From Yuukianura sp. NJ FZ-2021 (lineage: Eukaryota): a stretch of DNA of 64,000 nucleotides. A program made the position numbers and the translations under genes. Positions 1 through 64,000 of the stretch are shown here, piece by piece; the stretch's first letter is position 1; every line of letters starts with the position of its first letter. Location: positions 310,001 through 374,000 of the forward strand of contig CM102287.1 of assembly GCA_046563655.1 (NCBI GenBank). Reading direction: 5' to 3'. Under the pieces are notes generated by a model. That model was not told the origin of the DNA and searched no databases. It saw only the letters and a list, made by a program, of their open reading frames with translations.

Positions 1-310
1 CGATCTATCCACGCCAATTATCCTTGGGTTCCTGTAGTACTTTTCAGGAGGATTTCAGAAAAGTAACTCATTTTCACCCGGCATCGCTCCGCGTGGAGGT
101 TTTTCGAAATATTTGTTTGGAAACAAATTTTCATAAAGAAAAGTAACGAGATGAGGGACGACACAGCAAGTGAAAGTGGGTTCCTGTAGCCCTTTTTATG
201 AGGATTTCAAAAATGTAATTTACTTTTACCTGGCATCGTTTCGGAATGCATTTCTTTTGAATTTTTGTTGTGAAACATGAATTTTCATAAATAAAGGTAA
301 CAAGATGAGG

Positions 311-465
311 GACGACACAGCAAGTGAAAGTGGGCTTCTGTAGCTCTTTTTATGAGGATTTCAAAAATGTAGTTGACTTTTACCTAGCATCGTTTCGGAC
401 TGCATTTCTTTTGAATTCTTTGTTTTGAAACATGAATTTTCATAAATAAAAGTAACAAGATTAGA
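311..465 (+). repeat. Representative 155 bp satellite monomer
   Basis: Anchor-to-anchor distance 311 to 466. Consensus is approximately GACGACACAGCAAGTGAAAGTGGGCTCCTGTAGCACTTTTTATGAGGATTTCAAAAATGTAGTTGACTTTTACCTAGCATCGTTTCGGAATGCATTTCTTTTGAATTCTTTGTTTTGAAACATGAATTTTCATAAATAAAAGTAACAAGATTAGG; individual copies differ at a few diagnostic sites. Confidence 0.97.
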
Positions 466-620
466 GACGACACAGCAAGTGAAAGTGGGCTCCTGTAGCA
501 CTTTTTATGTGGATTTCAAAGCTGTAGTTGATTTTTACCCAGCATCGTTCCGGAACGCATTTCTTTTGAATTCTTTGTTTTGAAACAAGAATTTTCCTAA
601 ATAAAAGTAACAAGATTAGG

Positions 621-1007
621 GACGACACAGCAAGTGAAAGTGGGCTCCTGTAGCACTTATTATGAGGATTTCAAAAATGAAATTTACTTTCTGTTTATTC
701 TCACATTAGCATGTTCATTCTCACAAATTTAAGTCGTTTTCGACAAAATGGTGCTCGGCATTGCACTGGGTACCGTTTACCAACCCAAGATAAACTCCGA
801 GGCAGAGCGGTTCATCCAGACTTTTAAGTACGCTCTAACCAGATTTAATGGCGATCTATCCACGCCAATTATCCTTGGGTTCCTGTAGTACTTTTCAGGA
901 GGATTTCAGAAAAGTAACTCATTTTCACCCGGCATCGCTCCGCGTGGAGGTTTTTCGAAATATTTGTTTGGAAACAAATTTTCATAAAGAAAAGTAACGA
1001 GATTAGG
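621..1007 (+). repeat. Representative 387 bp long unit (L): monomer head (621-690), non-monomer insert (~691-875), diverged monomer tail (~876-1007); about 69 copies in the window
   Basis: Anchor-to-anchor distance 621 to 1008. The head matches the monomer up to AATTTACTTT. The tail TGGGTTCCTGTAGTACTTTTCAGGAGGATTTCAGAAAAGTAACTCATTTTCACCCGGCATCG...GAAACAAATTTTCATAAAGAAAAGTAACGAGAT aligns colinearly with the monomer. Confidence 0.96.
728..888 (+). pseudogene. Degenerate LTR-retrotransposon (Ty3/Gypsy-like) integrase core fragment inside the L unit (first complete copy; repeated in every L)
   Basis: Manual translation: 728-739 FKSF; frameshift; 741-767 RQNGARHCT; frameshift; 769-888 GTVYQPKINSEAERFIQTFKYALTRFNGDLSTPIILGFL*. 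This matches the recalled rve-domain pattern F..F...NGI.H..S.PYHP.SNG.AERF.QTFK.AL around the catalytic Glu (codon 805-807). No database search was run. Confidence 0.8.
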
Positions 1008-4000
1008 GACGACACAGCAAGTGAAAGTGGGTTCCTGTAGCCCTTTTTATGAGGATTTCAAAAATGTAGTTGACTGTTACCTAGCATCGTTCCGGAATGC
1101 ATTTCTTTTGAATTCTCTGTTTTGAAACATGAATTTTCATAAATAAAAGTAACAAGATGAGGGACGACACAGCAAGTGAAAGTGGGCTCCTGTAGCACTT
1201 TTTATGAGGATTTCAAAAATGTAATTTACTTTTACCTGGCATCGTTTCGGAATGCATTTCTTTTGAATTTTTGTTGTGAAACATGAATTTTCATAAATAA
1301 AGGTAACAAGATGAGGGACGACACAGCAAGTGAAAGTGGGCTTCTGTAGCTCTTTTTATGAGGATTTCAAAAATGTAGTTGACTTTTACCTAGCATCGTT
1401 TCGGATTGCATTTCTTTTGAATTCTTTGTTTTGAAACATGAATTTTCATAAATAAAAGTAACAAGATTAGGGACGACACAGCAAGTGAAAGTGGGCTCCT
1501 GTAGCACTTTTTATGTGGATTTCAAAGCTGTAGTTGATTTTTACCTAGCATCGTTTCGGAATGCATTTCTTTTGAATTCTTTGTTTTGAAACATGAATTT
1601 TCATAAATAAAAGTAACAAGATTAGGGACGACACAGCAAGTGAAAGTGGGCTCCTGTAGCACTTTTTATGTGGATTTCAAAGCTGTAGTTGATTTTTACC
1701 CAGCATCGTTCCGGAATGCATTTCTTTTGAATTCTTTGTTTTGAAACAAGAATTTTCCTAAATAAAAGTAACAAGATTAGGGACGACACAGCAAGTGAAA
1801 GTGGGCTCCTGTAGCACTTATTATGAGGATTTCAAAAATGAAATTTACTTTCTGTTTATTCTCACATTAGCATGTTCATTCTCACAAATTTAAGTCGTTT
1901 TCGACAAAATGGTGCTCGGCATTGCCCTGGGTACCGTTTACCAACCCAAGATAAACTCCGAGGCAGAGCGGTTCATCCAGACTTTTAAGTACGCTCTAAC
2001 CAGATTTAATGGCGATCTATCCACGCCAATTATCCTTGGGTTCCTGTAGTACTTTTCAGGAGGATTTCAGAAAAGTAACTCATTTTCACCCGGCATCGCT
2101 CCGCGTGGAGGTTTTTCGAAATATTTGTTTGGAAACAAATTTTCATAAAGAAAAGTAACGAGATGAGGGACGACACAGCAAGTGAAAGTGGGTTCCTGTA
2201 GCCCTTTTTATGAGGATTTCAAAAATGTAATTTACTTTTACCTGGCATCGTTTCGGAATGCATTTCTTTTGAATTTTTGTTGTGAAACATGAATTTTCAT
2301 AAATAAAGGTAACAAGATGAGGGACGACACAGCAAGTGAAAGTGGGCTTCTGTAGCTCTTTTTATGAGGATTTCAAAATGTAGTTGACTTTTACCTAGCA
2401 TCGTTTCGGATTGCATTTCTTTTGAATTCTTTGTTTTGAAACATGAATTTTCATAAATAAAAGTAACAAGATTAGAGACGACACAGCAAGTGAAAGTGGG
2501 CTCCTGTAGCACTTTTTATGTGGATTTCAAAGCTGTAGTTGATTTTTACCCAGCATCGTTCGGGAACGCATTTCTTTTGAATTCTTTGTTTTGAAACAAG
2601 AATTTTCCTAAATAAAAGTAACAAGATTAGGGACGACACAGCAAGTGAAAGTGGGCTCCTGTAGCACTTATTATGAGGATTTCAAAAATGAAATTTACTT
2701 TCTGTTTATTCTCACATTAGCATGTTCATTCTCACAAATTTAAGTCGTTTTCGACAAAATGGTGCTCGGCATTGCACTGGGTACCGTTTACCAACCCAAG
2801 ATAAACTCCGAGGCAGAGCGGTTCATCCAGACTTTTAAGTACGCTCTAACCAGATTTAATGGCGATCTATCCACGCCAATTATCCTTGGGTTCCTGTAGT
2901 ACTTTTCAGGAGGATTTCAGAAAAGTAACTCATTTTCACCCGGCATCGCTCCGCGTGGAGGTTTTTCGAAATATTTGTTTGGAAACAAATTTTCATAAAG
3001 AAAAGTAACGAGATGAGGGACGACACAGCAAGTGAAAGTGGGTTCCTGTAGCCCTTTTTATGAGGATTTCAAAAATGTAATTTACTTTTACCTGGCATCG
3101 TTTCGGAATGCATTTCTTTTGAATTTTTGTTGTGAAACATGAATTTTCATAAATAAAGGTAACAAGATGAGGGACGACACAGCAAGTGAAAGTGGGCTTC
3201 TGTAGCTCTTTTTATGAGGATTTCAAAATGTAGTTGACTTTTACCTAGCATCGTTTCGGATTGCATTTCTTTTGAATTCTTTGTTTTGAAACATGAATTT
3301 TCATAAATAAAAGTAACAAGATTAGAGACGACACAGCAAGTGAAAGTGGGCTCCTGTAGCACTTTTTATGTGGATTTCAAAGCTGTAGTTGATTTTTACC
3401 CAGCATCGTTCCGGAACGCATTTCTTTTGAATTCTTTGTTTTGAAACAAGAATTTTCCTAAATAAAAGTAACAAGATTAGGGACGACACAGCAAGTGAAA
3501 GTGGGCTCCTGTAGCACTTATTATGAGGATTTCAAAAATGAAATTTACTTTCTGTTTATTCTCACATTAGCATGTTCATTCTCACAAATTTAAGTCGTTT
3601 TCGACAAAATGGTGCTCGGCATTGCACTGGGTACCGTTTACCAACCCAAGATAAACTCCGAGGCAGAGCGGTTCATCCAGACTTTTAAGTACGCTCTAAC
3701 CAGATTTAATGGCGATCTATCCACGCCAATTATCCTTGGGTTCCTGTAGTACTTTTCAGGAGGATTTCAGAAAAGTAACTCATTTTCACCCGGCATCGCT
3801 CCGCGTGGAGGTTTTTCGAAATATTAGTTTGGAAACAAATTTTCATAAAGAAAAGTAACGAGATTAGGGACGACACAGCAAGTGAAAGTGGGTTCCTGTA
3901 GCCCTTTTTATGAGGATTTCAAAAATGTAGTTGACTGTTACCTAGCATCGTTCCGGAATGCATTTCTTTTGAATTCTCTGTTTTGAAACATGAATTTTCA

Positions 4001-7000
4001 TAAATAAAAGTAACAAGATGAGGGACGACACAGCAAGTGAAAGTGGGCTCCTGTAGCACTTTTTATGAGCATTTCAAAAATGTAATTTACTTTTACCTGG
4101 CATCGTTTCGGAATGCATTTCTTTTGAATTTTTGTTGTGAAACATGAATTTTCATAAATAAAGGTAACAAGATGAGGGACGACACAGCAAGTGAAAGTGG
4201 GCTTCTGTAGCTCTTTTTATGAGGATTTCAAAAATGTAGTTGACTTTTACCTAGCATCGTTTCGGATTGCATTTCTTTTGAATTCTTTGTTTTGAAACAT
4301 GAATTTTCATAAATAAAAGTAACAAGATTAGGGACGACACAGCAAGTGAAAGTGGGCTCCTGTAGCACTTTTTATGTGGATTTCAAAGCTGTAGTTGATT
4401 TTTACCTAGCATCGTTTCGGAATGCATTTCTTTTGAATTCTTTGTTTTGAAACATGAATTTTCCTAAATAAAAGTAACAAGATTAGGGACGACACAGCAA
4501 GTGAAAGTGGGCTCCTGTAGCACTTATTATGAGGATTTCAAAAATGAAATTTACTTTCTGTTTATTCTCACATTAGCATGTTCATTCTCACAAATTTAAG
4601 TCGTTTTCGACAAAATGGTGCTCGGCATTGCCCTGGGTACCGTTTACCAACCCAAGATAAACTCCGAGGCAGAGCGGTTCATCCAGACTTTTAAGTACGC
4701 TCTAACCAGATTTAATGGCGATCTATCCACGCCAATTATCCTTGGGTTCCTGTAGTACTTTTCAGGAGGATTTCAGAAAAGTAACTCATTTTCACCCGGC
4801 ATCGCTCCGCGTGGAGGTTTTTCGAAATATTTGTTTGGAAACAAATTTTCATAAAGAAAAGTAACGAGATGAGGGACGACACAGCAAGTGAAAGTGGGTT
4901 CCTGTAGCCCTTTTTATGAGGATTTCAAAAATGTAGTTGACTGTTACCTAGCATCGTTCCGGAATTCATTTCTTTTGAATTCTCTGTTTTGAAACATGAA
5001 TTTTCATAAATAAAAGTAACAAGATGAGGGACGACACAGCAAGTGAAAGTGGGCTCCTGTAGCACTTTTTATGAGGATTTCAAAAATGTATTTTACTTTT
5101 ACCTGGCATCGTTTCGGAATGCATTTCTTTTGAATTCTTTGTTTTTAAACATGAATTTTCATAAATAAAAGTAACAAGATTAGAGACGACACAGCAAGTG
5201 AAAGTGGGCTCCTGTAGCACTTTTTATGTGGATTTCAAAGCTGTAGTTGATTTTTACCCAGCATCGTTCCGGAACGCATTTCTTTTGAATTCTTTGTTTT
5301 GAAACAAGAATTTTCCTAAATAAAAGTAACAAGATTAGGGACGACACAGCAAGTGAAAGTGGGCTCCTGTAGCACTTTTTATGTGGATTTCAAAGCTGTA
5401 GTTGATTTTTACCCAGCATCGTTCCGGAATGCATTTCTTTTGAATTCTTTGTTTTGAAACAAGAATTTTCCTAAATAAAAGTAACAAGATTAGGGACGAC
5501 ACAGCAAGTGAAAGTGGGCTCCTGTAGCACTTATTATGAGGATTTCAAAAATGAAATTTACTTTCTGTTTATTCTCACATTAGCATGTTCATTCTCACAA
5601 ATTTAAGTCGTTTTCGACAAAATGGTGCTCGGCATTGCCCTGGGTACCGTTTACCAACCCAAGATAAACTCCGAGGCAGAGCGGTTCATCCAGACTTTTA
5701 AGTACGCTCTAACCAGATTTAATGGCGATCTATCCACGCCAATTATCCTTGGGTTCCTGTAGTACTTTTCAGGAGGATTTCAGAAAAGTAACTCATTTTC
5801 ACCCGGCATCGCTCCGCGTGGAGGTTTTTCGAAATATTTGTTTGGAAACAAATTTTCATAAAGAAAAGTAACGAGATGAGGGACGACACAGCAAGTGAAA
5901 GTGGGTTCCTGTAGCCCTTTTTATGAGGATTTCAAAAATGTAGTTGACTGTTACCTAGCATCGTTCCGGAATTCATTTCTTTTGAATTCTCTGTTTTGAA
6001 ACATGAATTTTCATAAATAAAAGTAACAAGATGAGGGACGACACAGCAAGTGAAAGTGGGCTCCTGTAGCACTTTTTATGAGGATTTCAAAAATGTATTT
6101 TACTTTTACCTGGCATCGTTTCGGAATGCATTTCTTTTGAACTCTTTGTTTTTAAACATGAATTTTCATAAATAAAAGTAACAAGATGAGGGACGACACA
6201 GCAAGTGAAAGTGGGCTCCTGTAGCACTTTTTATGAGGATTTCAAAAATGTAATTTACTTTTACCTGGCATCGTTTCGGAATGCATTTCTTTTGAATTTT
6301 TGTTGTGAAACGTGAATTTTCATAAATAAAGGTAACAAGATGAGGGACGACACAGCAAGTGAAAGTGGGCTTCTGTAGCTCTTTTTATTAGGATTTCAAA
6401 AATGTAGTTGACTTTTACCTAGCATCGTTTCGGAATGCATTTCTTTTGAATTCTTTGTTTTGAAACATGAATTTTCATAAATAAAAGTAACAAGATTAGG
6501 GACGACACAGCAAGTGAAAGTGGGCTCCTGTAGCACTTTTTATGAGGATTTCAAAAATGTAATTTACTTTTACCTGGCATCGTTTCGGAATGCATTTCTT
6601 TTGAATTTTTGTTGTGAAACATGAATTTTCATAAATAAAGGTAACAAGATGAGGGACGACACAGCAAGTGAAAGTGGGCTTCTGTAGCTCTTTTTATGAG
6701 GATTTCAAAAATGTAGTTGACTTTTACCTAGCATCGTTTCGGATTGCATTTCTTTTGAATTCTTTGTTTTGAAACATGAATTTTCATAAATAAAAGTAAC
6801 AAGATTAGGGACGACACAGCAAGTGAAAGTGGGCTCCTGTAGCACTTTTTATGTGGATTTCAAAGCTGTAGTTGATTTTTACCTAGCATCGTTTCGGAAT
6901 GCATTTCTTTTGATTTCTTTGTTTTGAAACATGAATTTTCATAAATAAAAGTAACAAGATTAGGGACGACACAGCAAGTGAAAATGGGCTCCTGTAGCAC

Positions 7001-10000
7001 ATATTATGAGGATTTCAAAAATGTAATTTACTTTCTGTTCATTCTCACATTAGCATGTTTATTCTCAGAAATTTAAGTCGTTTTCGACAAAATGGTGCTC
7101 GGCATTGCCCTGGGTACCGTTTACCAACCCAAGATAATCTCCGAGGCAGAGCGGTTCATCCAGACTCTTAAGTACGCTCTAACCAGATTTAATGGCGATC
7201 TATCCACGCCAATTATCCTTGGGTTCCTGTAGTACTTTTCAGGAGGATTTCAGAAAAGTAACTCATTTTCACCCGGCATCGCTCCGCGTGGAGGTTTTTC
7301 GAAATATTTGTTTGGAAACAAATTTTCATGAAGAAAAGTAACGAGATGAGGGACGACACAGCAAGTGAAAGTGGGTTCCTGTAGCACTTTTTATGAGGAT
7401 TTCAAAAATGTAGTTGACTGTTACCTAGCATCGTTCCGGAATTCATTTCTTTTGAATTCTCTGTTTTGAAACATGAATTTTCATAAATAAAAGTAACAAG
7501 ATGAGGGACGACACAGCAAGTGAAAGTGGGCTCCTGTAGCACTTTTTATGAGGATTTCAAAAATGTAATTTACTTTTACCTGGCATCGTTTCGGAATGCA
7601 TTTCTTTTGAATTCTTTGTTTTGAAACATGAATTTTCCTAAATAAAAGTAACAAGATTAGGGACGACACAACAAGTGAAAGTGGGCTCCTGTAGCACTTT
7701 TTATGAGGATTTCAAAAATGAAAGTTACTTTCTGTTTATTCTCACATTAGCATGTTCATTCTCACAAATTTAAGTCGTTTTCGACAAAATGGTGCTCGGC
7801 ATTGCCCTGGGTACCGTTTACCAACCCAAGATAAACTCCGAGGCAGAGCGGTTCATCCAGACTTTTAAGTACGCTCTAACCAGATTTAATGGCGATCTAT
7901 CCACGCCAATTATCCTTGGGTTCCTGTAGTACTTTTCAGGAGGATTTCAGAAAAGTAACTCATTTTCACCCGGCATCGCTCCGCGTGGAGGTTTTTCGAA
8001 ATATTTGTTTGGAAACAAATTTTCATAAAGAAAAGTAACGAGATGAGGGACGACACAGCAAGTGAAAGTGGGTTCCTGTAGCCCTTTTTATGAGGATTTC
8101 AAAAATGTAGTTGACTGTTACCTAGCATCGTTCCGGAATTCATTTCTTTTGAATTCTCTGTTTTGAAACATGAATTTTCATAAATAAAAGTAACAAGATG
8201 AGGGACGACACAGCAAGTGAAAGTGGGCTCCTGTAGCACTTTTTATGAGGATTTCAAAAATGTATTTTACTTTTACCTGGCATCGTTTCGGAATGCATTT
8301 CTTTTGAATTCTTTGTTTTTAAACATGAATTTTCATAAATAAAAGTAACAAGATGAGGGACGACACAGCAAGTGAAAGTGGGCTCCTGTAGCACTTTTTA
8401 TGAGGATTTCAAAAATGTAATTTACTTTTACCTGGCATCGTTTCGGAATGCATTTCTTTTGAATTTTTGTTGTGAAACATGAATTTTCATAAATAAAGGT
8501 AACAAGATGAGGGACGACACAGCAAGTGAAAGTGGGCTTCTGTAGCTCTTTTTATGAGGATTTCAAAAATGTAGTTGACTTTTACCTAGCATCGTTTCGG
8601 AATGCATTTCTTTTGAATTCTTTGTTTTGAAACATGAATTTTCATAAATAAAAGTAACAAGATTAGGGACGACACAGCAAGTGAAAGTGGGCTCCTGTAG
8701 CACTTTTTATGTGGATTTCAAAGCTGTAGTTGATTTTTACCCAGCATCGTTCCAGAATGCATTTCTTTTGAATTCTTTGTTTTGAAACAAGAATTTTCCT
8801 AAATAAAAGTAACAAGATTAGGGACGACACAGCAAGTGAAAGTGGGCTCCTGTAGCACTTATTATGAGGATTTCAAAAATGAAATTTACTTTCTGTTTAT
8901 TCTCACATTAGCATGTTCATTCTCACAAATTTAAGTCGTTTTCGACAAAATGGTGCTCGGCATTGCCCTGGGTACCGTTTACCAACCCAAGATAAACTCC
9001 GAGGCAGAGCGGTTCATCCAGACTTTTAAGTACGCTCTAACCAGATTTAATGGCGATCTATCCACGCCAATTATCCTTGGGTTCCTGTAGTACTTTTCAG
9101 GAGGATTTCAGAAAAGTAACTCATTTTCACCCGGCATCGCTCCGCGTGGAGGTTTTTCGAAATATTTGTTTGGAAACAAATTTTCATAAAGAAAAGTAAC
9201 GAGATGAGGGACGACACAGCAAGTGAAAGTGGGTTCCTGTAGCCCTTTTTATGAGGATTTCAAAAATGTAGTTGACTGTTACCTAGCATCGTTCCGGAAT
9301 TCATTTCTTTTGAATTCTCTGTTTTGAAACATGAATTTTCATAAATAAAAGTAACAAGATGAGGGACGACACAGCAAGTGAAAGTGGGCTCCTGTAGCAC
9401 TTTTTATGAGGATTTCAAAAATGTATTTTACTTTTACCTGGCATCGTTTCGGAATGCATTTCTTTTGAATTCTTTGTTTTGAAACATGAATTTTCATAAA
9501 TAAAAGTAACAAGATGAGGGACGACACAGCAAGTGAAAGTGGGCTCCTGTAGCACTTTTTATGAGGATTTCAAAAATGTAATTTACTTTTACCTGGCATC
9601 GTTTCGGAATGCATTTCTTTTGAATTTTTGTTGTGAAACGTGAATTTTCATAAATAAAGGTAACAAGATGAGGGACGACACAGCAAGTGAAAGTGGGCTT
9701 CTGTAGCTCTTTTTATTAGGATTTCAAAAATGTAGTTGACTTTTACCTAGCATCGTTTCGGAATGCATTTCTTTTGAATTCTTTGTTTTGAAACATGAAT
9801 TTTCATAAATAAAAGTAACAAGATTAGGGACGACACAGCAAGTGAAAGTGGGCTCCTGTAGCACTTTTTATGTGGATTTCAAAAATGTAATTTACTTTTA
9901 CCTGGCATCGTTTCGGAATGCATTTCTTTTGAATTTTTGTTGTGAAACATGAATTTTCATAAATAAAGGTAACAAGATGAGGGACGACACAGCAAGTGAA

Positions 10001-13000
10001 AGTGGGCTTCTGTAGCTCTTTTTATGAGGATTTCAAAAATGTAGTTGACTTTTACCTAGCATCGTTTCGGATTGCATTTCTTTTGAATTCTTTGTTTTGA
10101 AACATGAATTTTCATAAATAAAAGTAACAAGATTAGGGACGACACAGCAAGTGAAAGTGGGCTCCTGTAGCACTTTTTATGTGGATTTCAAAGCTGTAGT
10201 TGATTTTTACCTAGCATCGTTTGGGAATGCATTTCTTTTGAATTCTTTGTTTTGAAACATGAATTTTCATAAATAAAAGTAACAAGATTAGGGACGACAC
10301 AGCAAGTGAAAGTGGGCTCCTGTAGCACTTTTTATGTGGATTTCAAAGCTGTAGTTGATTTTTACCCAGCATCGTTCCGGAATGCATTTCTTTTGAATTC
10401 TTTGTTTTGAAACAAGAATTTTCCTAAATAAAAGTAACAAGATTAGGGACGACACAGCAAGTGAAAGTGGGCTCCTGTAGCACTTATTATGAGGATTTCA
10501 AAAATGAAATTTACTTTCTGTTTATTCTCACATTAGCATGTTCATTCTCACAAATTTAAGTCGTTTTCGACAAAATGGTGCTCGGCATTGCCCTGGGTAC
10601 CGTTTACCAACCCAAGATAAACTCCGAGGCAGAGCGGTTCATCCAGACTTTTAAGTACGCTCTAACCAGATTTAATGGCGATCTATCCACGCCAATTATC
10701 CTTGGGTTCCTGTAGTACTTTTCAGGAGGATTTCAGAAAAGTAACTCATTTTCACCCGGCATCGCTCCGCGTGGAGGTTTTTCGAAATATTTGTTTGGAA
10801 ACAAATTTTCATAAAGAAAAGTAACGAGATGAGGGACGACACAGCAAGTGAAAGTGGGTTCCTGTAGCCCTTTTTATGAGGATTTCAAAAATGTAGTTGA
10901 CTGTTACCTAGCATCGTTCCGGAATTCATTTCTTTTGAATTCTCTGTTTTGAAACATGAATTTTCATAAATAAAAGTAACAAGATGAGGGACGACACAGC
11001 AAGTGAAAGTGGGCTCCTGTAGCACTTTTTATGAGGATTTCAAAAATGTAATTTACTTTTACCTGGCATCGTTTCGGAATGCATTTCTTTTGAATTTTTG
11101 TTGTGAAACATGAATTTTCATAAATAAAGGTAACAAGATGAGGGACGACACAGCAAGTGAAAGTGGGCTTCTGTAGCTCTTTTTATTAGGATTTCAAAAA
11201 TGTAGTTGACTTTTACCTAGCATCGTTTCGGAATGCATTTCTTTTGAATTCTTTGTTTTGAAACATGAATTTTCATAAATAAAAGTAACAAGATTAGGGA
11301 CGACACAGCAAGTGAAAGTGGGCTCCTGTAGCACTTTTTATGTGGATTTCAAAGCTGTAGTTGATTTTTACCCAGCATCGTTCCAGAATGCATTTCTTTT
11401 GAATTCTTTGTTTTGAAACAAGAATTTTCCTAAATAAAAGTAACAAGATTAGGGACGACACAGCAAGTGAAAGTGGGCTCCTGTAGCACTTATTATGAGG
11501 ATTTCAAAAATGAAATTTACTTTCTGTTTATTCTCACATTAGCATGTTCATTCTCACAAATTTAAGTCGTTTTCGACAAAATGGTGCTCGGCATTGCCCT
11601 GGGTACCGTTTACCAACCCAAGATAAACTCCGAGGCAGAGCGGTTCATCCAGACTTTTAAGTACGCTCTAACCAGATTTAATGGCGATCTATCCACGCCA
11701 ATTATCCTTGGGTTCCTGTAGTACTTTTCAGGAGGATTTCAGAAAAGTAACTCATTTTCACCCGGCATCGCTCCGCGTGGAGGTTTTTCGAAATATTTGT
11801 TTGGAAACAAATTTTCATAAAGAAAAGTAACGAGATGAGGGACGACACAGCAAGTGAAAGTGGGTTCCTGTAGCCCTTTTTATGAGGATTTCAAAAATGT
11901 AGTTGACTGTTACCTAGCATCGTTCCGGAATTCATTTCTTTTGAATTCTCTGTTTTGAAACATGAATTTTCATAAATAAAAGTAACAAGATGAGGGACGA
12001 CACAGCAAGTGAAAGTGGGCTCCTGTAGCACTTTTTATGAGGATTTCAAAAATGTAGTTGACTTTTACCTGGCATCGTTTCGGATTGCATTTCTTTTGAA
12101 TTCTTTGTTTTGAAACATGAATTTTCATAAATAAAAGTAACAAGATTAGAGACGACACAGCAAGTGAAAGTGGGCTCCTGTAGCACTTTTTATGTGGATT
12201 TCAAAGCTGTAGTTGATTTTTACCCAGCATCGTTCCGGAACGCATTTCTTTTGAATTCTTTGTTTTGAAACAAGAATTTTCCTAAATAAAAGTAACAAGA
12301 TTAGGGACGACACAGCAAGTGAAAGTGGGCTCCTGTAGCACTTATTATGAGGATTTCAAAAATGAAATTTACTTTCTGTTTATTCTCACATTAGCATGTT
12401 CATTCTCACAAATTTAAGTCGTTTTCGACAAAATGGTGCTCGGCATTGCACTGGGTACCGTTTACCAACCCAAGATAAACTCCGAGGCAGAGCGGTTCAT
12501 CCAGACTTTTAAGTACGCTCTAACCAGATTTAATGGCGATCTATCCACGCGAATTATCCTTGGGTTCCTGTAGTACTTTTCAGGAGGATTTCAGAAAAGT
12601 AACTCATTTTCACCCGGCATCGCTCCGCGTGGAGGTTTTTCGAAATATTTGTTTGGAAACAAATTTTCATAAAGAAAAGTAACGAGATTAGGGACGACAC
12701 AGCAAGTGAAAGTGGGTTCCTGTAGCCCTTTTTATGAGGATTTCAAAAATGTAATTTACTTTTACCTGGCATCGTTTCGGAATGCATTTCTTTTGAATTT
12801 TTGTTGTGAAACATGAATTTTCATAAATAAAGGTAACAAGATGAGGGACGACACAGCAAGTGAAAGTGGGTTCCTGTAGCCCTTTTTATGAGGATTTCAA
12901 AAATGTAGTTGACTGTTACCTAGCATCGTTCCGGAATGCATTTCTTTTGAATTCTCTGTTTTGAAACATGAATTTTCATAAATAAAAGTAACAAGATGAG

Positions 13001-15477
13001 GGACGACACAGCAAGTGAAAGTGGGCTCCTGTAGCACTTTTTATGAGGATTTCAAAAATGTAATTTACTTTTACCTGGCATCGTTTCGGAATGCATTTCT
13101 TTTGAATTTTTGTTGTGAAACATGAATTTTCATAAATAAAGGTAACAAGATGAGGGACGACACAGCAAGTGAAAGTGGGCTTCTGTAGCTCTTTTTATGA
13201 GGATTTCAAAAATGTAGTTGACTTTTACCTAGCATCGTTTCGGATTGCATTTCTTTTGAATTCTTTGTTTTGAAACATGAATTTTCACAAATAAAAGTAA
13301 CAAGATAAGGGACGACACAGCAAGTGAAAGTGGGCTCCTGTAGCACTTTTTATGAGGATTTCAAAAATGTAGTTGACTTTTACCTAGCATCGTTTCGGAA
13401 TGCATTTCTTTTGAATTCTTTGTTTTGAAACATGAATTTTCATAAATAAAAGTAACAAGATTAGGGACGACACAGCAAGTGAAAGTGGGCTCCTGTAGCA
13501 CTTTTTATGTGGATTTCAAAGCTGTAGTTGATTTTTACCCAGCATCGTTCCGGAATGCATTTCTTTTGAATTCTTTGTTTTGAAACAAGAATTTTCCTAA
13601 ATAAAAGTAACAAGATTAGGGACGACACAGCAAGTGAAAGTGGGCTCCTGTAGCACTTATTATGAGGATTTCAAAAATGAAATTTACTTTCTGTTTATTC
13701 TCACATTAGCATGTTCATTCTCACAAATTTAAGTCGTTTTCGACAAAATGGTGCTCGGCATTGCCCTGGGTACCGTTTACCAACCCAAGATAAACTCCGA
13801 GGCAGAGCGGTTCATCCAGACTTTTAAGTACGCTCTAACCAGATTTAATGGCGATCTATCCACGCCAATTATCCTTGGGTTCCTGTAGTACTTTTCAGGA
13901 GGATTTCAGAAAAGTAACTCATTTTCACCCGGCATCGCTCCGCGTGGAGGTTTTTCGAAATATTTGTTTGGAAACAAATTTTCATAAAGAAAAGTAACGA
14001 GATGAGGGACGACACAGCAAGTGAAAGTGGGTTCCTGTAGCCCTTTTTATGAGGATTTCAAAAATGTAGTTGACTGTTACCTAGCATCGTTCCGGAATTC
14101 ATTTCTTTTGAATTCTCTGTTTTGAAACATGAATTTTCATAAATAAAAGTAACAAGATGAGGGACGACACAGCAAGTGAAAGTGGGCTCCTGTAGCACTT
14201 TTTATGAGGATTTCAAAAATGTATTTTACTTTTACCTGGCATCGTTTCGGAATGCATTTCTTTTGAATTTTTGTTGTGAAACATGAATTTTCATAAATAA
14301 AAGTAACAAGATGAGGGACGACACAGCAAGTGAAAGTGGGCTCCTGTAGCACTTTTTATGAGGATTTCAAAAATGTAATTTACTTTTACCTGGCATCGTT
14401 TCGGAATGCATTTCTTTTGAATTTTTGTTGTGAAACGTGAATTTTCATAAATAAAGGTAACAAGATGAGGGACGACACAGCAAGTGAAAGTGGGCTTCTG
14501 TAGCTCTTTTTATTAGGATTTCAAAAATGTAGTTGACTTTTACCTAGCATCGTTTCGGAATGCATTTCTTTTGAATTCTTTGTTTTGAAACATGAATTTT
14601 CATAAATAAAAGTAACAAGATTAGGGACGACACAGCAAGTGAAAGTGGGCTCCTGTAGCACTTTTTATGTGGATTTCAAAGCTGTAGTTGATTTTTACCC
14701 AGCATCGTTCCAGAATGCATTTCTTTTGAATTCTTTGTTTTGAAACAAGAATTTTCCTAAATAAAAGTAACAAGATTAGGGACGACACAGCAAGTGAAAG
14801 TGGGCTCCTGTAGCACTTATTATGAGGATTTCAAAAATGAAATTTACTTTCTGTTTATTCTCACATTAGCATGTTCATTCTCACAAATTTAAGTCGTTTT
14901 CGACAAAATGGTGCTCGGCATTGCCCTGGGTACCGTTTACCAACCCAAGATAAACTCCGAGGCAGAGCGGTTCATCCAGACTTTTAAGTACGCTCTAACC
15001 AGATTTAATGGCGATCTATCCACGCCAATTATCCTTGGGTTCCTGTAGTACTTTTCAGGAGGATTTCAGAAAAGTAACTCATTTTCACCCGGCATCGCTC
15101 CGCGTGGAGGTTTTTCGAAATATTTGTTTGGAAACAAATTTTCATAAAGAAAAGTAACGAGATGAGGGACGACACAGCAAGTGAAAGTGGGTTCCTGTAG
15201 CCCTTTTTATGAGGATTTCAAAAATGTAGTTGACTGTTACCTAGCATCGTTCCGGAATTCATTTCTTTTGAATTCTCTGTTTTGAAACATGAATTTTCAT
15301 AAATAAAAGTAACAAGATGAGGGACGACACAGCAAGTGAAAGTGGGCTCCTGTAGCACTTTTTATGAGGATTTCAAAAATGTAATTTACTTTTACCTGGC
15401 ATCGTTTCGGAATGCATTTCTTTTGAATTCTTTGTTTTGAAACATGAATTTTCCTAAATAAAAGTAACAAGATTAGG

Positions 15478-15864
15478 GACGACACAGCAAGTGAAAATGG
15501 GCTCCTGTAGCACATATTATGAGGATTTCAAAAATGAAATTTACTTTCTGTTCATTCTCACATTAGCATGTTTATTCTCAGAAATTTAAGTCGTTTTCGA
15601 CAAAATGGTGCTCGGCATTGCCCTGGGTACCGTTTACCAACCCAAGATAAACTCCGAGGCAGAGCGGTTCATCCAGACCCTTAAGTACGCTCTAACCAGA
15701 TTTAATGGTGATCTATCCACGCCAATTATCCTTGGGTTCCTGTAGTACTTTTCAGGAGGATTTCAGAAAAGTAACTCGTTTTCACCCGGCATCGCTCCGC
15801 GTGGAGGTTTTTCGAAATATTTGTTTGGAAACAAATTTTCATAAAGAAAAGTAACGAGATGAGG
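15478..15864 (+). repeat. L-unit subtype B (first complete copy)
   Basis: Linked diagnostic variants relative to subtype A: GAAAATGGG, CACATATTAT, TGTTCATTC...TGTTTATTCTCAGAAA, AC(C/T)CTTAAG, GGTGATC, ACTCGTTTT. Confidence 0.9.
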
Positions 15865-18649
15865 GACGACACAGCAAGTGAAAGTGGGTTCCTGTAGCCC
15901 TTTTTATGAGGATTTCAAAAATGTAGTTGACTGTTACCTAGCATCGTTCCGGAATGCATTTCTTTTGAATTCTCTGTTTTGAAACATGAATTTTCATAAA
16001 TAAAAGTAACAAGATGAGGGACGACACAGCAAGTGAAAGTGGGCTCCTGTAGCACTTTTTATGAGGATTTCAAAAATGTAATTTACTTTTACCTGGCATC
16101 GTTTCGGAATGCATTTCTTTTGAATTTTTGTTGTGAAACATGAATTTTCATAAATAAAGGTAACAAGATGAGGGACGACACAGCAAGTGAAAGTGGGCTT
16201 CTGTAGCTCTTTTTATGAGGATTTCAAAAATGTAGTTGACTTTTACCTAGCATCGTTTCGGAATGCATTTCTTTTGAATTCTTTGTTTTGAAACATGAAT
16301 TTTCATAAATAAAAGTAACAAGATTAGGGACGACACAGCAAGTGAAAGTGGGCTCCTGTAGCACTTTTTATGTGGATTTCAAAGCTGTAGTTGATTTTTA
16401 CCCAGCATCGTTCCGGAATGCATTTCTTTTGAATTCTTTGTTTTGAAACAAGAATTTTCCTAAATAAAAGTAACAAGATTAGGGACGACACAGCAAGTGA
16501 AAGTGGGCTCCTGTAGCACTTATTATGAGGATTTCAAAAATGAAATTTACTTTCTGTTTATTCTCACATTAGCATGTTCATTCTCACAAATTTAAGTCGT
16601 TTTCGACAAAATGGTGCTCGGCATTGCCCTGGGTACCGTTTACCAACCCAAGATAAACTCCGAGGCAGAGCGGTTCATCCAGACTTTTAAGTACGCTCTA
16701 ACCAGATTTAATGGCGATCTATCCACGCCAATTATCCTTGGGTTCCTGTAGTACTTTTCAGGAGGATTTCAGAAAAGTAACTCATTTTCACCCGGCATCG
16801 CTCCGCGTGGAGGTTTTTCGAAATATTTGTTTGGAAACAAATTTTCATAAAGAAAAGTAACGAGATGAGGGACGACACAGCAAGTGAAAGTGGGTTCCTG
16901 TAGCCCTTTTTATGAGGATTTCAAAAATGTAGTTGACTGTTACCTAGCATCGTTCCGGAATTCATTTCTTTTGAATTCTCTGTTTTGAAACATGAATTTT
17001 CATAAATAAAAGTAACAAGATGAGGGACGACACAGCAAGTGAAAGTGGGCTCCTGTAGCACTTTTTATGTGGATTTCAAAGCTGTAGTTGATTTTTACCC
17101 AGCATCGTTCCGGAACGCATTTCTTTTGAATTCTTTGTTTTGAAACAAGAATTTTCCTAAATAAAAGTAACAAGATTAGGGACGACACAGCAAGTGAAAG
17201 TGGGCTCCTGTAGCACTTATTATGAGGATTTCAAAAATGAAATTTACTTTCTGTTTATTCTCACATTAGCATGTTCATTCTCACAAATTTAAGTCGTTTT
17301 CGACAAAATGGTGCTCGGCATTGCACTGGGTACCGTTTACCAACCCAAGATAAACTCCGAGGCAGAGCGGTTCATCCAGACTTTTAAGTACGCTCTAACC
17401 AGATTTAATGGCGATCTATCCACGCCAATTATCCTTGGGTTCCTGTAGTACTTTTCAGGAGGATTTCAGAAAAGTAACTCATTTTCACCCGGCATCGCTC
17501 CGCGTGGAGGTTTTTCGAAATATTTGTTTGGAAACAAATTTTCATAAAGAAAAGTAACGAGATTAGGGACGACACAGCAAGTGAAAGTGGGTTCCTGTAG
17601 CCCTTTTTATGAGGATTTCAAAAATGTAATTTACTTTTACCTGGCATCGTTTCGGAATGCATTTCTTTTGAATTTTTGTTTTGAAACATGAATTTTCATA
17701 AATAAAGGTAACAAGATGAGGGACGACACAGCAAGTGAAAGTGGGTTCCTGTAGCCCTTTTTATGAGGATTTCAAAAATGTAGTTGACTGTTACCTAGCA
17801 TCGTTCCGGAATGCATTTCTTTTGAATTCTCTGTTTTGAAACATGAATTTTCATAAATAAAAGTAACAAGATGAGGGACGACACAGCAAGTGAAAGTGGG
17901 CTCCTGTAGCACTTTTTATGAGGATTTCAAAAATGTAATTTACTTTTACCTGGCATCGTTTCGGAATGCATTTCTTTTGAATTTTTGTTGTGAAACATGA
18001 ATTTTCATAAATAAAGGTAACAAGATGAGGGACGACACAGCAAGTGAAAGTGGGCTTCTGTAGCTCTTTTTATGAGGATTTCAAAAATGTAGTTGACTTT
18101 TACCTAGCATCGTTTCGGATTGCATTTCTTTTGAATTCTTTGTTTTGAAACATGAATTTTCATAAATAAAAGTAACAAGATTAGGGACGACACAGCAAGT
18201 GAAAGTGGGCTCCTGTAGCACTTTTTATGAGGATTTCAAAGTAGTAGTTGACTTTTACCTAGCATCGTTTCGGAATGCATTTCTTTTGAATTCTTTGCTT
18301 TGAAACATGAATTTTCATAAATAAAAGTAACAAGATTAGGGACGACACAGCAAGTGAAAGTGGGCTCCTGTAGCACTTTTTATGTGGATTTCAAAGCTGT
18401 AGTTGATTTTTACCCAGCATCGTTCCGGAATGCATTTCTTTTGAATTCTTTGTTTTGAAACATGAATTTTCATAAATAAAGGTAACAAGATAAGGGACGA
18501 CACAGCAAGTGAAAGTGGGCTCCTGTAGCACTTTTTGTGAGGATTTCAAAAATGTAATTTACTTTCTGTTCATTCTCACATTAGCATGTTCATTCTCACA
18601 AATTTAAGTCGTTTTCGACAAAATGGTGCTCGGCATTGCCCTGGGTACC

Positions 18650-21495
18650 GTTTACCAACCCAAGATAAACTCGAGGCAGAGCGGTTCATCCAGACTTTTA
18701 AGTACGCTCTAACCAGATTTAATGGCGATCTATCCACGCCAATTATCCTTGGGTTCCTGTAGTACTTTTCAGGAGGATTTCAGAAAAGTAACTCATTTTC
18801 ACCGGCAGCTCCGTGGAGGTTTTTCGAAATATTTGTTTGGAAACAAATTTTCAGAAAAGTAACGAGATGAGGGACGACACAGCAAGTGAAAGTGGGTTCA
18901 GCCCTTTTTATGAGGATTTCAAAAATACTGATTTTTACCTAGGCATCGTTCCGGAATGCATTTCTTTTGAATTCTTTGTTTTGAAACATGAATTTTCATA
19001 AATAAAAGTAACAAGATGAGGGACGACACAGCAAGTGAAAGTGGGCTCCTGTAGCACTTATTATGAGGATTTCAAAAATGAAATTTACTTTCTGTTTATT
19101 CTCACATTAGCATGTTCTCGGAAATGCATTAAGTCGTTTTCGACAAAATGGTGCTCGGCATTGCCCTGGGTACCGTTTACCAACCGAAACATGCAGAGCG
19201 GTTTTCATAAACTTTTAAAGTACGCTCTAACCAAGATGATGGCGACGATCCACAGCCAAGTGAAAGTGGGTTCCTGTAGCACTTTTTATGAGGATTTCAG
19301 AAATGTAGTTGATTTTTACCTGGCATCGTTCCGCGAATGCATTTCTTTTCGAATTCTCTGTTTTGAAACATGAATTTTCACAAATAAAGGTAACAAGATG
19401 AGGGACGACACAGCAAGTGAAAGTGGGCTCCTGTAGCACTTTTTATGAGGATTTCAAAGATGTAGTTGACTTTTACCCAGCATCGTTCCGGAATGCATTT
19501 CTTTTGAATTCTTTGTTTTGAAACATGAATTTTCATAAATAAAAGTAACAAGATGAGGGACGACACAGCAAGTGAAAGTGGGCTCCTGTAGCACTTTTTA
19601 TGAGGATTTCAAAAATGTAGTTGACTTTTACCTAGCATCGTTCCGGAACGCATTTCTTTTGAATTCTTTGTTTTGAAACATGAATTTTCATAAATAAAGG
19701 TAACAAGATGTAGGACTACACAGCAAGTGAAAGTGGGCTCTTGTAGCCCTTTTTATGAGGATTTCAAAAATGTAATTTACTTTCTGTTCATTCTCACATT
19801 AGCATGTTCATTCTCACAAATTTAAGTCGTTTTCGACAAAATGGTGCTCGGCATTGCCCTGGGTACCGTTTACCAACCCAAGATAAACTCCGAGGCAGAG
19901 CGGTTCATCCAGACTTTTAAGTACGCTCTAACCAGATTTAATGGCGATCTATCCACGCCATTTAAACTTGGGTTCCTGTAGTACTTTTCAGGAGGATTAC
20001 AGAAAAGTAACTCATTTTCACCAGGCATCTCTCCGCATGGAGGTTTTTCGAAATATTTGTTTTGGAAACAAATTTTCATAAAGGAAAGTAACGAGATGAG
20101 GGACTACACAGCAAGTGAAAGTGGGCTCCTGTAGCACTTTTTATGAGGATTTCAAAGATGTAGTTGACTTTTACCTAGCATCGTTCCGGAATGCATTTCT
20201 TTTGAATTTTTTGTTTTGAAACATGAATTTTCATAAACAATGGTAACAAGATAAGGGACGACACAGCAAGTGAAAAAGGGCTCCTGTAGCACTTTTTATG
20301 AGGATTTCAAAAATGTAGTTGACTTTTACCCAGCATCGTTCCGGAGTGCATTTCTTTTGATTTCTTTGTTTTGAAACATGAATTTTCATAAATAAAAGTA
20401 ACAAGATTAGGGACGACACAGCAAGTGAAAATGGGCTCCTGTAGCACATGTTATGAGGATTTCAAAAATGTAAATTTACTTTTACCTGTTCATTCGGAAT
20501 GCATTTCATTTGCATTTTGTTGTGAAACATTCTCATAAATTTAAAGTCGTTTTCGACAAAATGATGCTCGGCATTGCCCTGGGTACCGTTTACCAACCCA
20601 AGATAAACTCCGAGGCAGAGCGGGCATCCAGAATTTTAAGTACGCTCTAACCAGATTTAATGAGCGATCTATCCACGCCAATGTATCCTTGGGTTCCTGT
20701 AGTACTTTTACCTAGGAGGATTTCAGAAAAGTAATTCATTTTCACCCGGCATCGCTCCGCGTGGAGGTCTTTTCGAAATATTTGTTTTGGAAACATGAAT
20801 TTTCATAAATAAAAGTAACAAGATTAGGGACGACACAGCAAGTGAAAGTGGGCTCCTGTAGCACTTTTTATGAGGATTTCAAAAATGTAGTTGACTTTTA
20901 CCCAGCATCGTTTCGGAATGCATTTCTTTTGAATTTTTTGTTTTGAAACATGAATTTTCATAAATAAAAGGTAACAAGATGAGGGACGACACAGCAAGTG
21001 AAAGTGGGCTCCTGTAGCACTTTTTATGAGGATTTCAAAAATGTAATTTGACTTTTTACCTGCATCGTTCCGGAATGCATTTCTTTTGAATTCTTTGTTT
21101 TGAAACATGAATTTTCCTATAAATAAAAGGTAACAAGATGAGGGACGACACAGCAAGTGAAAGTGGGTTCCTGTAGCACTTTTTATGAGGATTTCAAAAA
21201 TGTAGTTTCTGTTTATTCTCACATTAGCATCGTTCGGAATGCATTAAGTCGTTTTCGACAAAATGGTGCTCGGCATTGCCCTGGGTACCGTTTACCAACC
21301 CAAGATGAAACTTTTCATAAACTTTTAAAACGCTCTAACCAAGATTTAATGGGACGATCTATCCACGCCAATTATCCTTGGGTTCCTGTAGTACTTTTCA
21401 GGAGGATTTCAGAAAATGTATTTTACTCATTTTCACCCGGCATCGCTCCGCGAATGGAGGTCTTTTCGAAATATTTGTTTTGAAACATGAATTTT
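18650..21495. other. Degenerate or mosaic segment of the array (probable assembly consensus artefact)
   Basis: Dense small indels and fine interleaving of L-insert and monomer sequence, e.g. CAACCGAAACATGCAGAGCGGTTTTCATAAACTTTTAAAGTACG at ~19180 and TGTTCATTCGGAATGCATTTCATTTGCATTTTG at ~20490. The flanking copies are near-identical to each other. Confidence 0.75.
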
Positions 21496-24400
21496 CATAA
21501 AGAAAAGTAACGAGATGAGGGACGACACAGCAAGTGAAAGTGGGTTCCTGTAGCCCTTTTTATGAGGATTTCAAAAATGTAGTTGACTGTTACCTAGCAT
21601 CGTTCCGGAATGCATTTCTTTTGAATTCTCTGTTTTGAAACATGAATTTTCATAAATAAAAGTAACAAGATGAGGGACGACACAGCAAGTGAAAGTGGGC
21701 TCCTGTAGCACTTTTTATGAGGATTTCAAAAATGTATTTTACTTTTACCTGGCATCGTTTCGGAATGCATTTCTTTTGAATTTTTGTTGTGAAACATGAA
21801 TTTTCATAAATAAAAGTAACAAGATGAGGGACGACACAGCAAGTGAAAGTGGGCTCCTGTAGCACTTTTTATGAGGATTTCAAAAATGTAATTTACTTTT
21901 ACCTGGCATCGTTTCGGAATGCATTTCTTTTGAATTTTTGTTGTGAAACGTGAATTTTCATAAATAAAGGTAACAAGATGAGGGACGACACAGCAAGTGA
22001 AAGTGGGCTTCTGTAGCTCTTTTTATTAGGATTTCAAAAATGTAGTTGACTTTTACCTAGCATCGTTTCGGAATGCATTTCTTTTGAATTCTTTGTTTTG
22101 AAACATGAATTTTCATAAATAAAAGTAACAAGATTAGGGACGACACAGCAAGTGAAAGTGGGCTCCTGTAGCACTTTTTATGTGGATTTCAAAGCTGTAG
22201 TTGATTTTTACCCAGCATCGTTCCAGAATGCATTTCTTTTGAATTCTTTGTTTTGAAACAAGAATTTCCCTAAATAAAAGTAACAAGATTAGGGACGACA
22301 CAGCAAGTGAAAGTGGGCTCCTGTAGCACTTATTATGAGGATTTCAAAAATGAAATTTACTTTCTGTTTATTCTCACATTAGCATGTTCATTCTCACAAA
22401 TTTAAGTCGTTTTCGACAAAATGGTGCTCGGCATTGCCCTGGGTACCGTTTACCAACCCAAGATAAACTCCGAGGCAGAGCGGTTCATCCAGACTTTTAA
22501 GTACGCTCTAACCAGATTTAATGGCGATCTATCCACGCCAATTATCCTTGGGTTCCTGTAGTACTTTTCAGGAGGATTTCAGAAAAGTAACTCATTTTCA
22601 CCCGGCATCGCTCCGCGTGGAGGTTTTTCGAAATATTTGTTTGGAAACAAATTTTCATAAAGAAAAGTAACAAGATTAGGGACGACACAGCAAGTGAAAG
22701 TGGGCTCCTGTAGCACTTATTATGAGGATTTCAAAAATGAAATTTACTTTCTGTTTATTCTCACATTAGCATGTTCATTCTCACAAATTTAAGTCGTTTT
22801 CGACAAAATGGTGCTCGGCATTGCCCTGGGTACCGTTTACCAACCCAAGATAAACTCCGAGGCAGAGCGGTTCATCCAGACTTTTAAGTACGCTCTAACC
22901 AGATTTAATGGCGATCTATCCACGCCAATTATCCTTGGGTTCCTGTAGTACTTTTCAGGAGGATTTCAGAAAAGTAACTCATTTTCACCCGGCATCGCTC
23001 CGCGTGGAGGTTTTTCGAAATATTTGTTTGGAAACAAATTTTCATAAAGAAAAGTAACGAGATGAGGGACGACACAGCAAGTGAAAGTGGGTTCCTGTAG
23101 CCCTTTTTATGAGGATTTCAAAAATGTAGTTGACTGTTACCTAGCATCGTTCCGGAATTCATTTCTTTTGAATTCTCTGTTTTGAAACATGAATTTTCAT
23201 AAATAAAAGTAACAAGATGAGGGACGACACAGCAAGTGAAAGTGGGCTCCTGTAGCACTTTTTATGAGGATTTCAGAAATGTAATTTACTTTTACCTGGC
23301 ATCGTTTCGGAATGCATTTCTTTTGAATTCTTTGTTTTGAAACATGAATTTTCCTAAATAAAAGTAACAAGATTAGGGACGACACAGCAAGTGAAAATGG
23401 GCTCCTGTAGCACATATTATGAGGATTTCAAAAATGAAATTTACTTTCTGTTCATTCTCACATTAGCATGTTTATTCTCAGAAATTTAAGTCGTTTTCGA
23501 CAAAATGGTGCTCGGCATTGCCCTGGGTACCGTTTACCAACCCAAGATAAACTCCGAGGCAGAGCGGTTCATCCAGACCCTTAAGTACGCTCTAACCAGA
23601 TTTAATGGTGATCTATCCACGCCAATTATCCTTGGGTTCCTGTAGTACTTTTCAGGAGGATTTCAGAAAAGTAACTCGTTTTCACCCGGCATCGCTCCGC
23701 GTGGAGGTTTTTCGAAATATTTGTTTGGAAACAAATTTTCATAAAGAAAAGTAACGAGATGAGGGACGACACAGCAAGTGAAAGTGGGTTCCTGTAGCCC
23801 TTTTTATGAGGATTTCAAAAATGTAGTTGACTGTTACCTAGCATCGTTCCGGAATGCATTTCTTTTGAATTCTCTGTTTTGAAACATGAATTTTCATAAA
23901 TAAAAGTAACAAGATGAGGGACGACACAGCAAGTGAAAGTGGGCTCCTGTAGCACTTTTTATGAGGATTTCAAAAATGTAATTTACTTTTACCTGGCATC
24001 GTTTCGGAATGCATTTCTTTTGAATTTTTGTTGTGAAACATGAATTTTCATAAATAAAGGTAACAAGATGAGGGACGACACAGCAAGTGAAAGTGGGTTC
24101 CTGTAGCCCTTTTTATGAGGATTTCAAAAATGTAGTTGACTTTTACCTAGCATCGTTTCGGATTGCATTTCTTTTGAATTCTTTGTTTTGAAACATGAAT
24201 TTTCATAAATAAAAGTAACAAGATTAGAGACGACACAGCAAGTGAAAGTGGGCTCTTGTAGCACTTTTTATGTGGATTTCAAAAATGTATTTTACTTTTA
24301 CCTGGCATCGTTTCGGAATGCATTTCTTTTGAATTTTTGTTGTGAAACATGAATTTTCATAAATAAAAGTAACAAGATGAGGGACGACACAGCAAGTGAA

Positions 24401-63700: not shown

Positions 63701-64000
63701 GGCATCGTTTCGGAATGCATTTCTTTTGAATTTTTGTTGTGAAACGTGAATTTTCATAAATAAAGGTAACAAGATGAGGGACGACACAGCAAGTGAAAGT
63801 GGGCTTCTGTAGCTCTTTTTATGAGGATTTCAAAAATGTAGTTGACTTTTACCTAGCATCGTTTCGGAATGCATTTCTTTTGAATTCTTTGTTTTGAAAC
63901 ATGAATTTTCATAAATAAAAGTAACAAGATGTGGGACGACACAGCAAGTGAAAGTGGGCTTCTGTAGCTCTTTTTATGAGGATTTCAAAAATGTAGTTGA

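Follow-up and report, generated by a model that had tools for sequence, protein, structure and literature searches.

The stretch of DNA analyzed here (64,000 nt in total, in the following referred to as the window) carries many copies of a short insert, and its best explanation is that a non-coding relic of a gypsy integrase gene was captured a single time in a satellite and was then co-amplified with it; we put the probability of this reading at about 0.9. Judged by its sequence, the insert is foreign to the satellite and homologous to integrases, and it resembles the K02A2.6-like lineage. That the capture took place only once, how the events followed each other, and by which mechanism the amplification proceeded are our inferences.

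A single satellite array with higher-order units of variable length

The whole 64,000-nt window is occupied by a single tandem array of a 155-bp satellite that runs on one strand. Tandem Repeats Finder detected repeats with periods of 155, 309, and 464 bp along the entire window, with 86-95% matches at the period of 155 bp, and the GC content across the window is flat (35-38%). A map of the monomer starts resolved the array into 370 units, 291 of which have a length of 150-158 bp and 64 a length of 234-235 bp; the latter are designated I units below. Clustering of the monomers at no more than six edits gave five types (a to e). Pairwise differences among types a, b, d, and e amount to 7-16 bases, whereas type c differs from these by 30-33 of 152-155 bases and is thus far more divergent than the other four types are among themselves.

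1..64000, + strand: satellite array with monomer types a-e and the I unit, arranged in higher-order units (HORs) of variable length (Tandem Repeats Finder, monomer map, coverage)
876..1027, + strand: type c monomer of 152 bp, located directly after the insert in regular units and containing 'FL*Y' (clustering)

Together, the five monomer types and the 185-bp segment described below cover 63,962 of the 64,000 bases, with a longest gap of 7 bases. The original prediction that this segment is the only non-monomer sequence of the window therefore holds, as does its statement that no LTR or target-site duplication is visible: only 38 of the 64,000 bases remain uncovered, and no other ORF matches retroelement families.

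The units follow each other in recurring orders, i.e., I-c-b-a (697 bp) and I-c-b-a-e-d (1006 bp), next to other variants in which one to nine monomers lie between the inserts. Among the 65 insert spacings, 697 bp and 1006 bp were each found 17 times and 1161 bp nine times, and rarer forms (including 852 bp) account for the others; since these spacings vary, the length of the HOR unit is not fixed. Regular units contain one insert each, and type c is always the next monomer. As is expected of a satellite with HORs, distinct monomer types recur in order, and the insert copies are 81-100% identical. It had been proposed that the insert marks every HOR; this applies where the array is regular, with one insert per unit, but the HORs themselves are of variable length.

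An irregular stretch rich in small indels is present at positions 18560-21420, especially at 19041-19270 and 21190-21380. Insert and monomer sequences alternate in register within its units, with monomer words, for example, in place of short parts of the insert. One contig from a public sequencing run likewise joins insert position 804 to monomer sequence. The interleaving within 18560-21420 represents either real recombinants or conversion tracts, or errors of assembly polishing. A search of Rfam with positions 1-3000 gave no match, and a literature search for three sequence words of the repeat retrieved no paper that contains them.

Anatomy and copies of the 185-bp insert

The I unit is a hybrid. 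About 50 monomer bases (641-690) are joined to 185 foreign bases (691-875), and the insert takes the place of monomer positions ~51-155; it is not a plain insertion.

641..690, + strand: first ~50 bases of a monomer, cut where the insert starts; 5' part of the 235-bp I unit (direct reading; 64 units of 234-235 bp)
691..875, + strand: foreign 185-bp segment that replaces the remainder of the monomer; the only non-satellite DNA in the window (no monomer similarity, GC content)

Local alignment of the insert with a monomer dimer gave a score of 16, compared with 16.4 +/- 2.2 for shuffled sequences, and 322 of 500 shuffles reached this value. We therefore rule out that the insert is a diverged monomer, since its similarity to the satellite is no better than that of shuffles. 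The GC content of the insert amounts to 42.7%, and that of its core (733-875) to 46.9%; the mean of the 291 monomers is 36.0% and their maximum 41.4%. The AT-rich 5' end of the insert (691-732) possesses a GC content of 28.6% and carries an 11-base word (TT[TC]ATTCTCACA) twice, at a distance of 22 bases. The extent of the segment had originally been given as 691-888. Positions 691-875 are indeed foreign, but positions 876-888, which supply the final four codons and the stop of the open frame described below ('LGFL*'), belong to the monomer and not to the insert.

We counted 66 insert copies with a 40-mer probe (no more than four mismatches) and 68 with a 17-mer, and blastn of the insert yielded 69 HSPs, all of them on the + strand. 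Sixty-seven of these HSPs are of full length (at least 170 bp) and 81-100% identical; one of the remaining two is truncated (20528-20689) and the other is cut by the start of the window. The predicted number of ~69 copies thus agrees with the about 68 that recur (66-69, depending on the probe). In 64 of 68 copies, the 5' junction word is the same save for one SNP; the word at the 3' junction is the same in 62 of 68. Since the insert occurs in one orientation, with uniform junctions, at one copy per unit, and next to a fixed neighbour, we infer that it was captured a single time and that this unit was then amplified, in line with the earlier proposal that the fragment had been embedded once and had spread with the satellite.

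Two haplotypes of the insert can be distinguished by Phe or Leu at the codon at 823-825 together with three linked sites in the 5' part. The Phe haplotype was followed by the 697-bp spacing in 13 cases, and the Leu haplotype by the 1006-bp spacing in 12. This alternation of haplotypes and units, which is a tendency, creates stretches with a super-unit of ~1703 bp.

Reading frames across the insert

Translation of the + strand of positions 661-1010 yielded ...HKFKSF in frame 2, RQNGARHCT in frame 3, and GTVYQPKINSEAERFIQTFKYALTRFNGDLSTPIILGFL*Y in frame 1, exactly the readings that the original prediction had offered. The frame of 46 codons to which it had drawn attention is present when counted from the ATG and comprises 51 codons from stop to stop.

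733..885, + strand: stop-to-stop frame of 51 codons (46 codons from the ATG at 748) (translation)
737..740, + strand: first frame break, where the reading passes from frame 2 into frame 3, within four consecutive T (traceback)
765..769, + strand: second frame break, from frame 3 to frame 1 (traceback; the codon at 765 precedes the shift and that at 769 follows it)

Eight peptide variants of the 733-885 frame occur in 66 copies, and two of these variants have stops or have lost the frame. The frame is an accidental open one that is composed of relic and monomer, and there is no evidence that it is coding.

Curated libraries and protein searches provide hints only

Searches of curated libraries with the 51-codon frame gave sub-threshold matches only, as one would expect if the resemblance to integrases were a matter of chance and the insert were non-coding DNA of unknown origin. 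In Pfam, residues 12-35 matched rve_3 with an E value of 0.023 and 14.9 bits (cut-off 26.5), and two other copy variants produced the same match. The curated Pfam cut-off for an rve-type core (PF00665 / PF13683) was not reached, no match to rve was obtained, and the other two frames were blank. None of 33 control ORFs (at least 25 codons, both strands, one full unit) had a Pfam match at an E value below 0.1; because 34 ORFs were queried, the E value of 0.023 for rve_3 is not significant when taken alone. NCBIfam returned the IS481 transposase, a DDE enzyme of the rve type, for residues 12-34 (E values of 0.094 and 0.028), and PHROGs a transposase at an E value of 0.3. The latter ranked below a match to a family of unknown function (residues 30-49, partly encoded by the monomer) that we took as noise. 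The weak Pfam and NCBIfam hits are independent of each other and fall on one stretch of the frame (residues 12-35). A genuine plant integrase fragment of 51 residues from the homologous place, used as a positive control, obtained zero Pfam matches as well. Since such a fragment also fails, library scores at this length decide nothing and say little either way about a chance resemblance.

General protein searches were affected by spurious matches. A sequence search of solved structures with the 51-residue frame hit HIV-2 and SIV protease at E values of 0.24-1.4, which we regard as noise, and a word-indexed search of longer proteins gave 15 candidates, none of them at an E value of 10 or lower. 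An exhaustive phmmer search of 1.84 billion representative proteins found no K02A2.6-like match at an E value of 0.001 or lower and returned two matches in total, both of which we rejected. The first (P0001; E value of 2.5e-24) is an artefact, since 14 weak stretches of a 1113-residue low-complexity repeat had been summed. In the second (P0002; E value of 8e-6), one match of 15 of 33 residues to a plant gypsy fragment had been counted double. This hypothetical protein of Mikania micrantha contains two tandem degraded plant gypsy integrase fragments at a distance of ~128 residues and represents a further example of an integrase sequence that became part of a tandem duplication.

A profile of 61 plant gypsy integrases supported only 21-25 residues of the frame (10.6 bits with HMMER). 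A frameshift-aware alignment with this profile reached 26.8 bits compared with 12.7 +/- 1.7 for dinucleotide shuffles (0 of 1000 attained the observed score), and frameshifts gave no gain with this profile. The six intact peptide variants scored 9.1-13.2 bits against the plant gypsy profile, the rest of the 405 distinct ORFs of the window scored no more than 3.1 bits, and monomer tiles no more than 15.5 bits. When the columns of the plant profile were permuted, the maximum was 19.0 bits versus the 26.8 bits of the genuine one (0 of 300), a first result that argues against chance.

Homology to animal K02A2.6-like integrases

We reached the decisive family by scanning metagenome contigs for a pattern derived from the 51-residue frame; this gave 16 loci, and in 11 of them 60 or more residues of an open frame precede the match. 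Seven of the match-spanning ORFs were scanned with Pfam, and every one carries rve. The two longest products (L001, 1227 residues; L015, 1253 residues) contain aspartyl protease, RVT_1, RT_RNaseH, Integrase_H2C2, and rve domains in this order, and the closest relatives of the insert are thus pol proteins in which protease, RT, RNase H, and integrase follow each other. The integrase region of L001 possesses 520 relatives at an E value of 0.001 or lower. The 120 of these that were listed carry RVT_1, RT_RNaseH, and rve; among them, those with a species name all stem from animals (ants, fishes, a tick, a scallop, a springtail, and Trichinella), and most of the named ones bear the NCBI name 'uncharacterized protein K02A2.6-like'.

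For the decisive profile, we used 119 of the listed relatives of L001 and excluded the product of L001 itself. The 51-codon frame alone scored 24.0 bits against this profile (E value of 1.5e-9), a reading bridged by X at one break 26.4 bits (2.8e-10), and the three-frame reading bridged by X at both breaks 41.0 bits (9e-15; all three E values refer to the search of one sequence). The difference between 41.0 bits for two breaks and 24.0 bits for the unbroken frame upholds the predicted identity of the insert as an integrase with two frameshifts. In frameshift-aware dynamic programming, the insert reached 47.8 bits with the 119-protein profile, compared with 12.3 +/- 1.6 for shuffled sequences (maximum 24.8 bits; 0 of 1000), so that the stitched peptide clearly exceeds its shuffled controls. 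The same procedure without shifts gave 37.0 bits; the upstream frames hence add 10.8 bits.

Because the family was reached through the insert's own pattern, the scores over 769-855 are partly selected, and only a test of the upstream part is fully independent. For this test, positions 769-875 were kept fixed and positions 691-768 were shuffled; none of 2000 such sequences reached 47.8 bits with the 119-protein profile, and one of 2000 reached the observed score with a profile of nine loci. Upstream of the shared motif, the relatives resemble the insert as translated in its other two frames, which had not been used to find the family.

713..855, + strand: integrase-core alignment, 48 columns, colinear and gap-free (9-locus traceback, columns 69-116; HMMER, columns 71-117 of the 119-protein profile)
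805..807, + strand: GAG codon aligned to the catalytic Glu of D,D(35)E (pairs with the 'e' of 'aeR')

The aligned path runs in frame 2 at 713-739, in frame 3 at 741-767, and in frame 1 at 769-855. These data bring the explanation by chance close to being refuted. That the decisive family was found through a word of the query does speak for it, but the exact eight-residue word ERFIQTFK occurs in only five of the 119 profile members, and the E value of 9e-15 was thus obtained on a profile in which 114 members lack this word. The independent upstream shuffles (0 of 2000) and the colinear, gap-free alignment over 48 columns count against chance as well.

The best single proteins are 48-55% identical to the insert over 46-49 residues and score 47.8-53.1 bits; the best plant-type gypsy integrase scores 28.9 bits over 28 residues. 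We checked the names of nine of the top ten pairwise matches and found three K02A2.6-like proteins of ants, one protein of a springtail, and five without a name. As far as this NCBI name goes, the proposed Ty3/Gypsy K02A2.6-like lineage is supported. It is highly improbable that the donor was another gene of the rve type, i.e., a domesticated gypsy-derived host gene, a DNA transposon, or a bacterial IS481-like element. The best matches belong to pol polyproteins that also possess RT and RNase H domains, and copies of retroelements would far outnumber domesticated genes as potential donors. Forty-eight codons are too short to reveal RT, LTRs, or gag, and one of the listed relatives is named 'Gypsy retrotransposon integrase-like protein 1'. 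The IS481 transposase was the top match in NCBIfam; however, it was a marginal one, with E values of 0.03-0.09 over only 23 residues.

In the consensus of the profile, the Glu of 'aeR' is located about 35-36 positions past the Asp of 'sdnG', which corresponds to the D(35)E spacing. The Glu of the AER motif in the insert, which had been taken for the catalytic residue, aligns with this position. The Asp column of 'sdnG' lies a few columns ahead of the first aligned column; because it precedes the start of the alignment, just one of the three catalytic residues survives. The insert does not encode all three residues of the D,D(35)E triad in a single open frame: it has the Glu codon only, and its frame is broken twice. 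The term 'active-site fragment', chosen in the original prediction, is thus an overstatement, since both Asp residues are missing.

No alignment to integrase was obtained in 691-712 or in the 20 bp at 856-875, and at the 5' end up to 42 bp of the insert match nothing. The 'FL*Y' reading, which had been equated with the FL..YR of integrases, is situated in monomer c and did not withstand comparison: positions 829-1027 scored 9.2 bits against the columns that follow 'TFK', compared with 9.9 +/- 1.5 for shuffled sequences, 639 of 1000 of which reached this value. Monomer c as a whole (876-1027) scored 9.2 bits against integrase (shuffled, 9.2 +/- 1.5; 448 of 1000 reach this value), no better than types a, b, d, and e.

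The insert is a relic of the rve-type integrase family and not a working member. With a frame that is broken twice, 48 alignable codons, and one of three catalytic residues, the piece is now non-coding.

Proposed origin of the hybrid unit

We propose that an animal Ty3/gypsy LTR retrotransposon, related to those that encode K02A2.6-like proteins, once resided in or beside the 155-bp satellite. Deletion or recombination would have left ~185 bp from the middle of the integrase gene and would have removed ~105 bp of the host monomer. The resulting 235-bp hybrid unit would then have become one position of the HOR and may have multiplied with it by the processes typical of satellites (unequal crossing-over, gene conversion, and segmental amplification). 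Further unequal exchanges, now among monomers, may afterwards have altered the number of monomers between the inserts.

The homology to integrase is also compatible with the reverse order of events, in which the 155-bp repeats would have arisen within or at the edge of a retrotransposon and the integrase piece would be a leftover of this parent element. Satellites born from tandem repeats in Ty3/gypsy elements are documented (PMC7004042; PMC3648361). However, such arrays sit at the 3' end of the gene or in the untranslated region, and the piece found here is the middle of the integrase core. The insert has monomers on both sides and interrupts one of them at approximately position 50, and the ORFs of the monomers are without similarity to retroelements (33 control ORFs; monomer tiles no more than 15.5 bits). 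We consider the reverse order unlikely and favor the capture of an integrase fragment by a pre-existing satellite.

Comparison with known systems

The insert and the K02A2.6-like integrases share 48 colinear core residues, from FxxF through GI.H, YHP, and NG.AERF.QTFK, including the catalytic Glu. Unlike these integrases, the insert is a fragment with two frame breaks and without Asp-Asp, and it also differs from K02A2.6-like elements in that it is devoid of the zinc-binding and C-terminal domains, RT, RNase H, and LTRs.

The origin of tandem repeats from retroelements is an already documented type of event, of which the array studied here is a clear further instance. The LCA-ApaI repeats of the Arctic lamprey are a chromosomal repeat family with homology to the integrase-coding region of gypsy, in which the whole repeat is a 702-bp unit that is 70.7% identical to Gypsy-26_PM-I (PMC5381345). 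In contrast, the 185-bp piece analyzed here is one HOR position among unrelated 155-bp monomers and has no known parent element. In Lathyrus, satellites are derived from Ogre Ty3/gypsy elements (PMC7004042), and the CRM1TR and CRM4TR repeats of maize stem from the LTR-UTR of CRM elements (PMC3648361). As in these Ogre and CRM satellites, retroelement sequence has been multiplied in a tandem array; however, the Ogre and CRM arrays are of untranslated or LTR origin and their monomers are element-derived, whereas the monomers of our array lack similarity to an element and the captured part is internal coding sequence. With its five monomer types (7-33 differences), their fixed order, and near-identical units, the array resembles HORs of the centromeric type, but in one of its positions a truncated monomer is fused to foreign DNA, and the length of its units varies.

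Our analysis shows how an HOR unit of a satellite can form around a fragment captured from a mobile element. The insert provides a datable and recognizable marker for the satellite; since its ancestral state, a coding integrase, is known, the decay of the relic offers a way to put the array's haplotypes into order and to follow the satellite from species to species. Annotators should bear in mind that a short open frame within a satellite may be a relic. A lineage-specific profile combined with the bridging of frames exposed a homology that curated libraries and an exhaustive protein search had missed.

The insert in public sequencing runs

We inspected the Logan contigs of four public sequencing runs from two organisms. 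The insert is very abundant in the four runs and is present in both organisms. In run X1, 1970 insert pieces were recovered, of which 395 matched at 99% or more, 704 at 95-99%, 711 at 90-95%, and 160 below 90%; in the second organism, one contig spans 662-905 with 31 differences. Stops occur among the insert variants of these runs, as do numerous amino-acid exchanges. Because both organisms carry the insert, the relic is older than their split, or than an exchange between them, and has diversified inside the arrays. The insert was found almost solely in the context of the satellite, with a share of 0-0.01 that continues into unlike sequence. Among the contigs of the four runs at a likeness of at least 80%, none leads from the insert into other retroelement sequence; contigs of this kind lose rare variants, so that a parent element may have escaped them.

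Since the relic has been kept once per unit, at a fixed place, and in two organisms, it may be considered as a functional part of the repeat: a landing site for chromatin or centromere proteins or a phasing element, a source of small RNAs against a living retrotransposon family, or the template for a peptide of 46 codons (ATG at 748). None of these roles is shown, and uniform copies are expected from amplification alone; we regard a function as very unlikely and retain the reading of a passively co-amplified relic.

Contigs with an extra T in the T run (736-740) were recovered from each of the four public runs; in three runs this variant is the minor form, and in the run of the second organism it accounts for the majority of the depth. 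The extra T brings frames 2 and 1 into register, which is not the integrase-like reading. We rejected the one-break reading suggested by this variant, since it scored 26.4 bits with the 119-protein profile versus 41.0 bits for two breaks.

A hand count of the variable sites over the whole frame gave 10, 9, and 16 sites at codon positions 1, 2, and 3, respectively, with no clear skew. Six sites that vary in the public runs are spaced at every third base (804, 807, 810, 813, 816, and 819) and belong to different haplotypes. Each of them falls on a third codon position within AERFIQ, and five read as synonymous.
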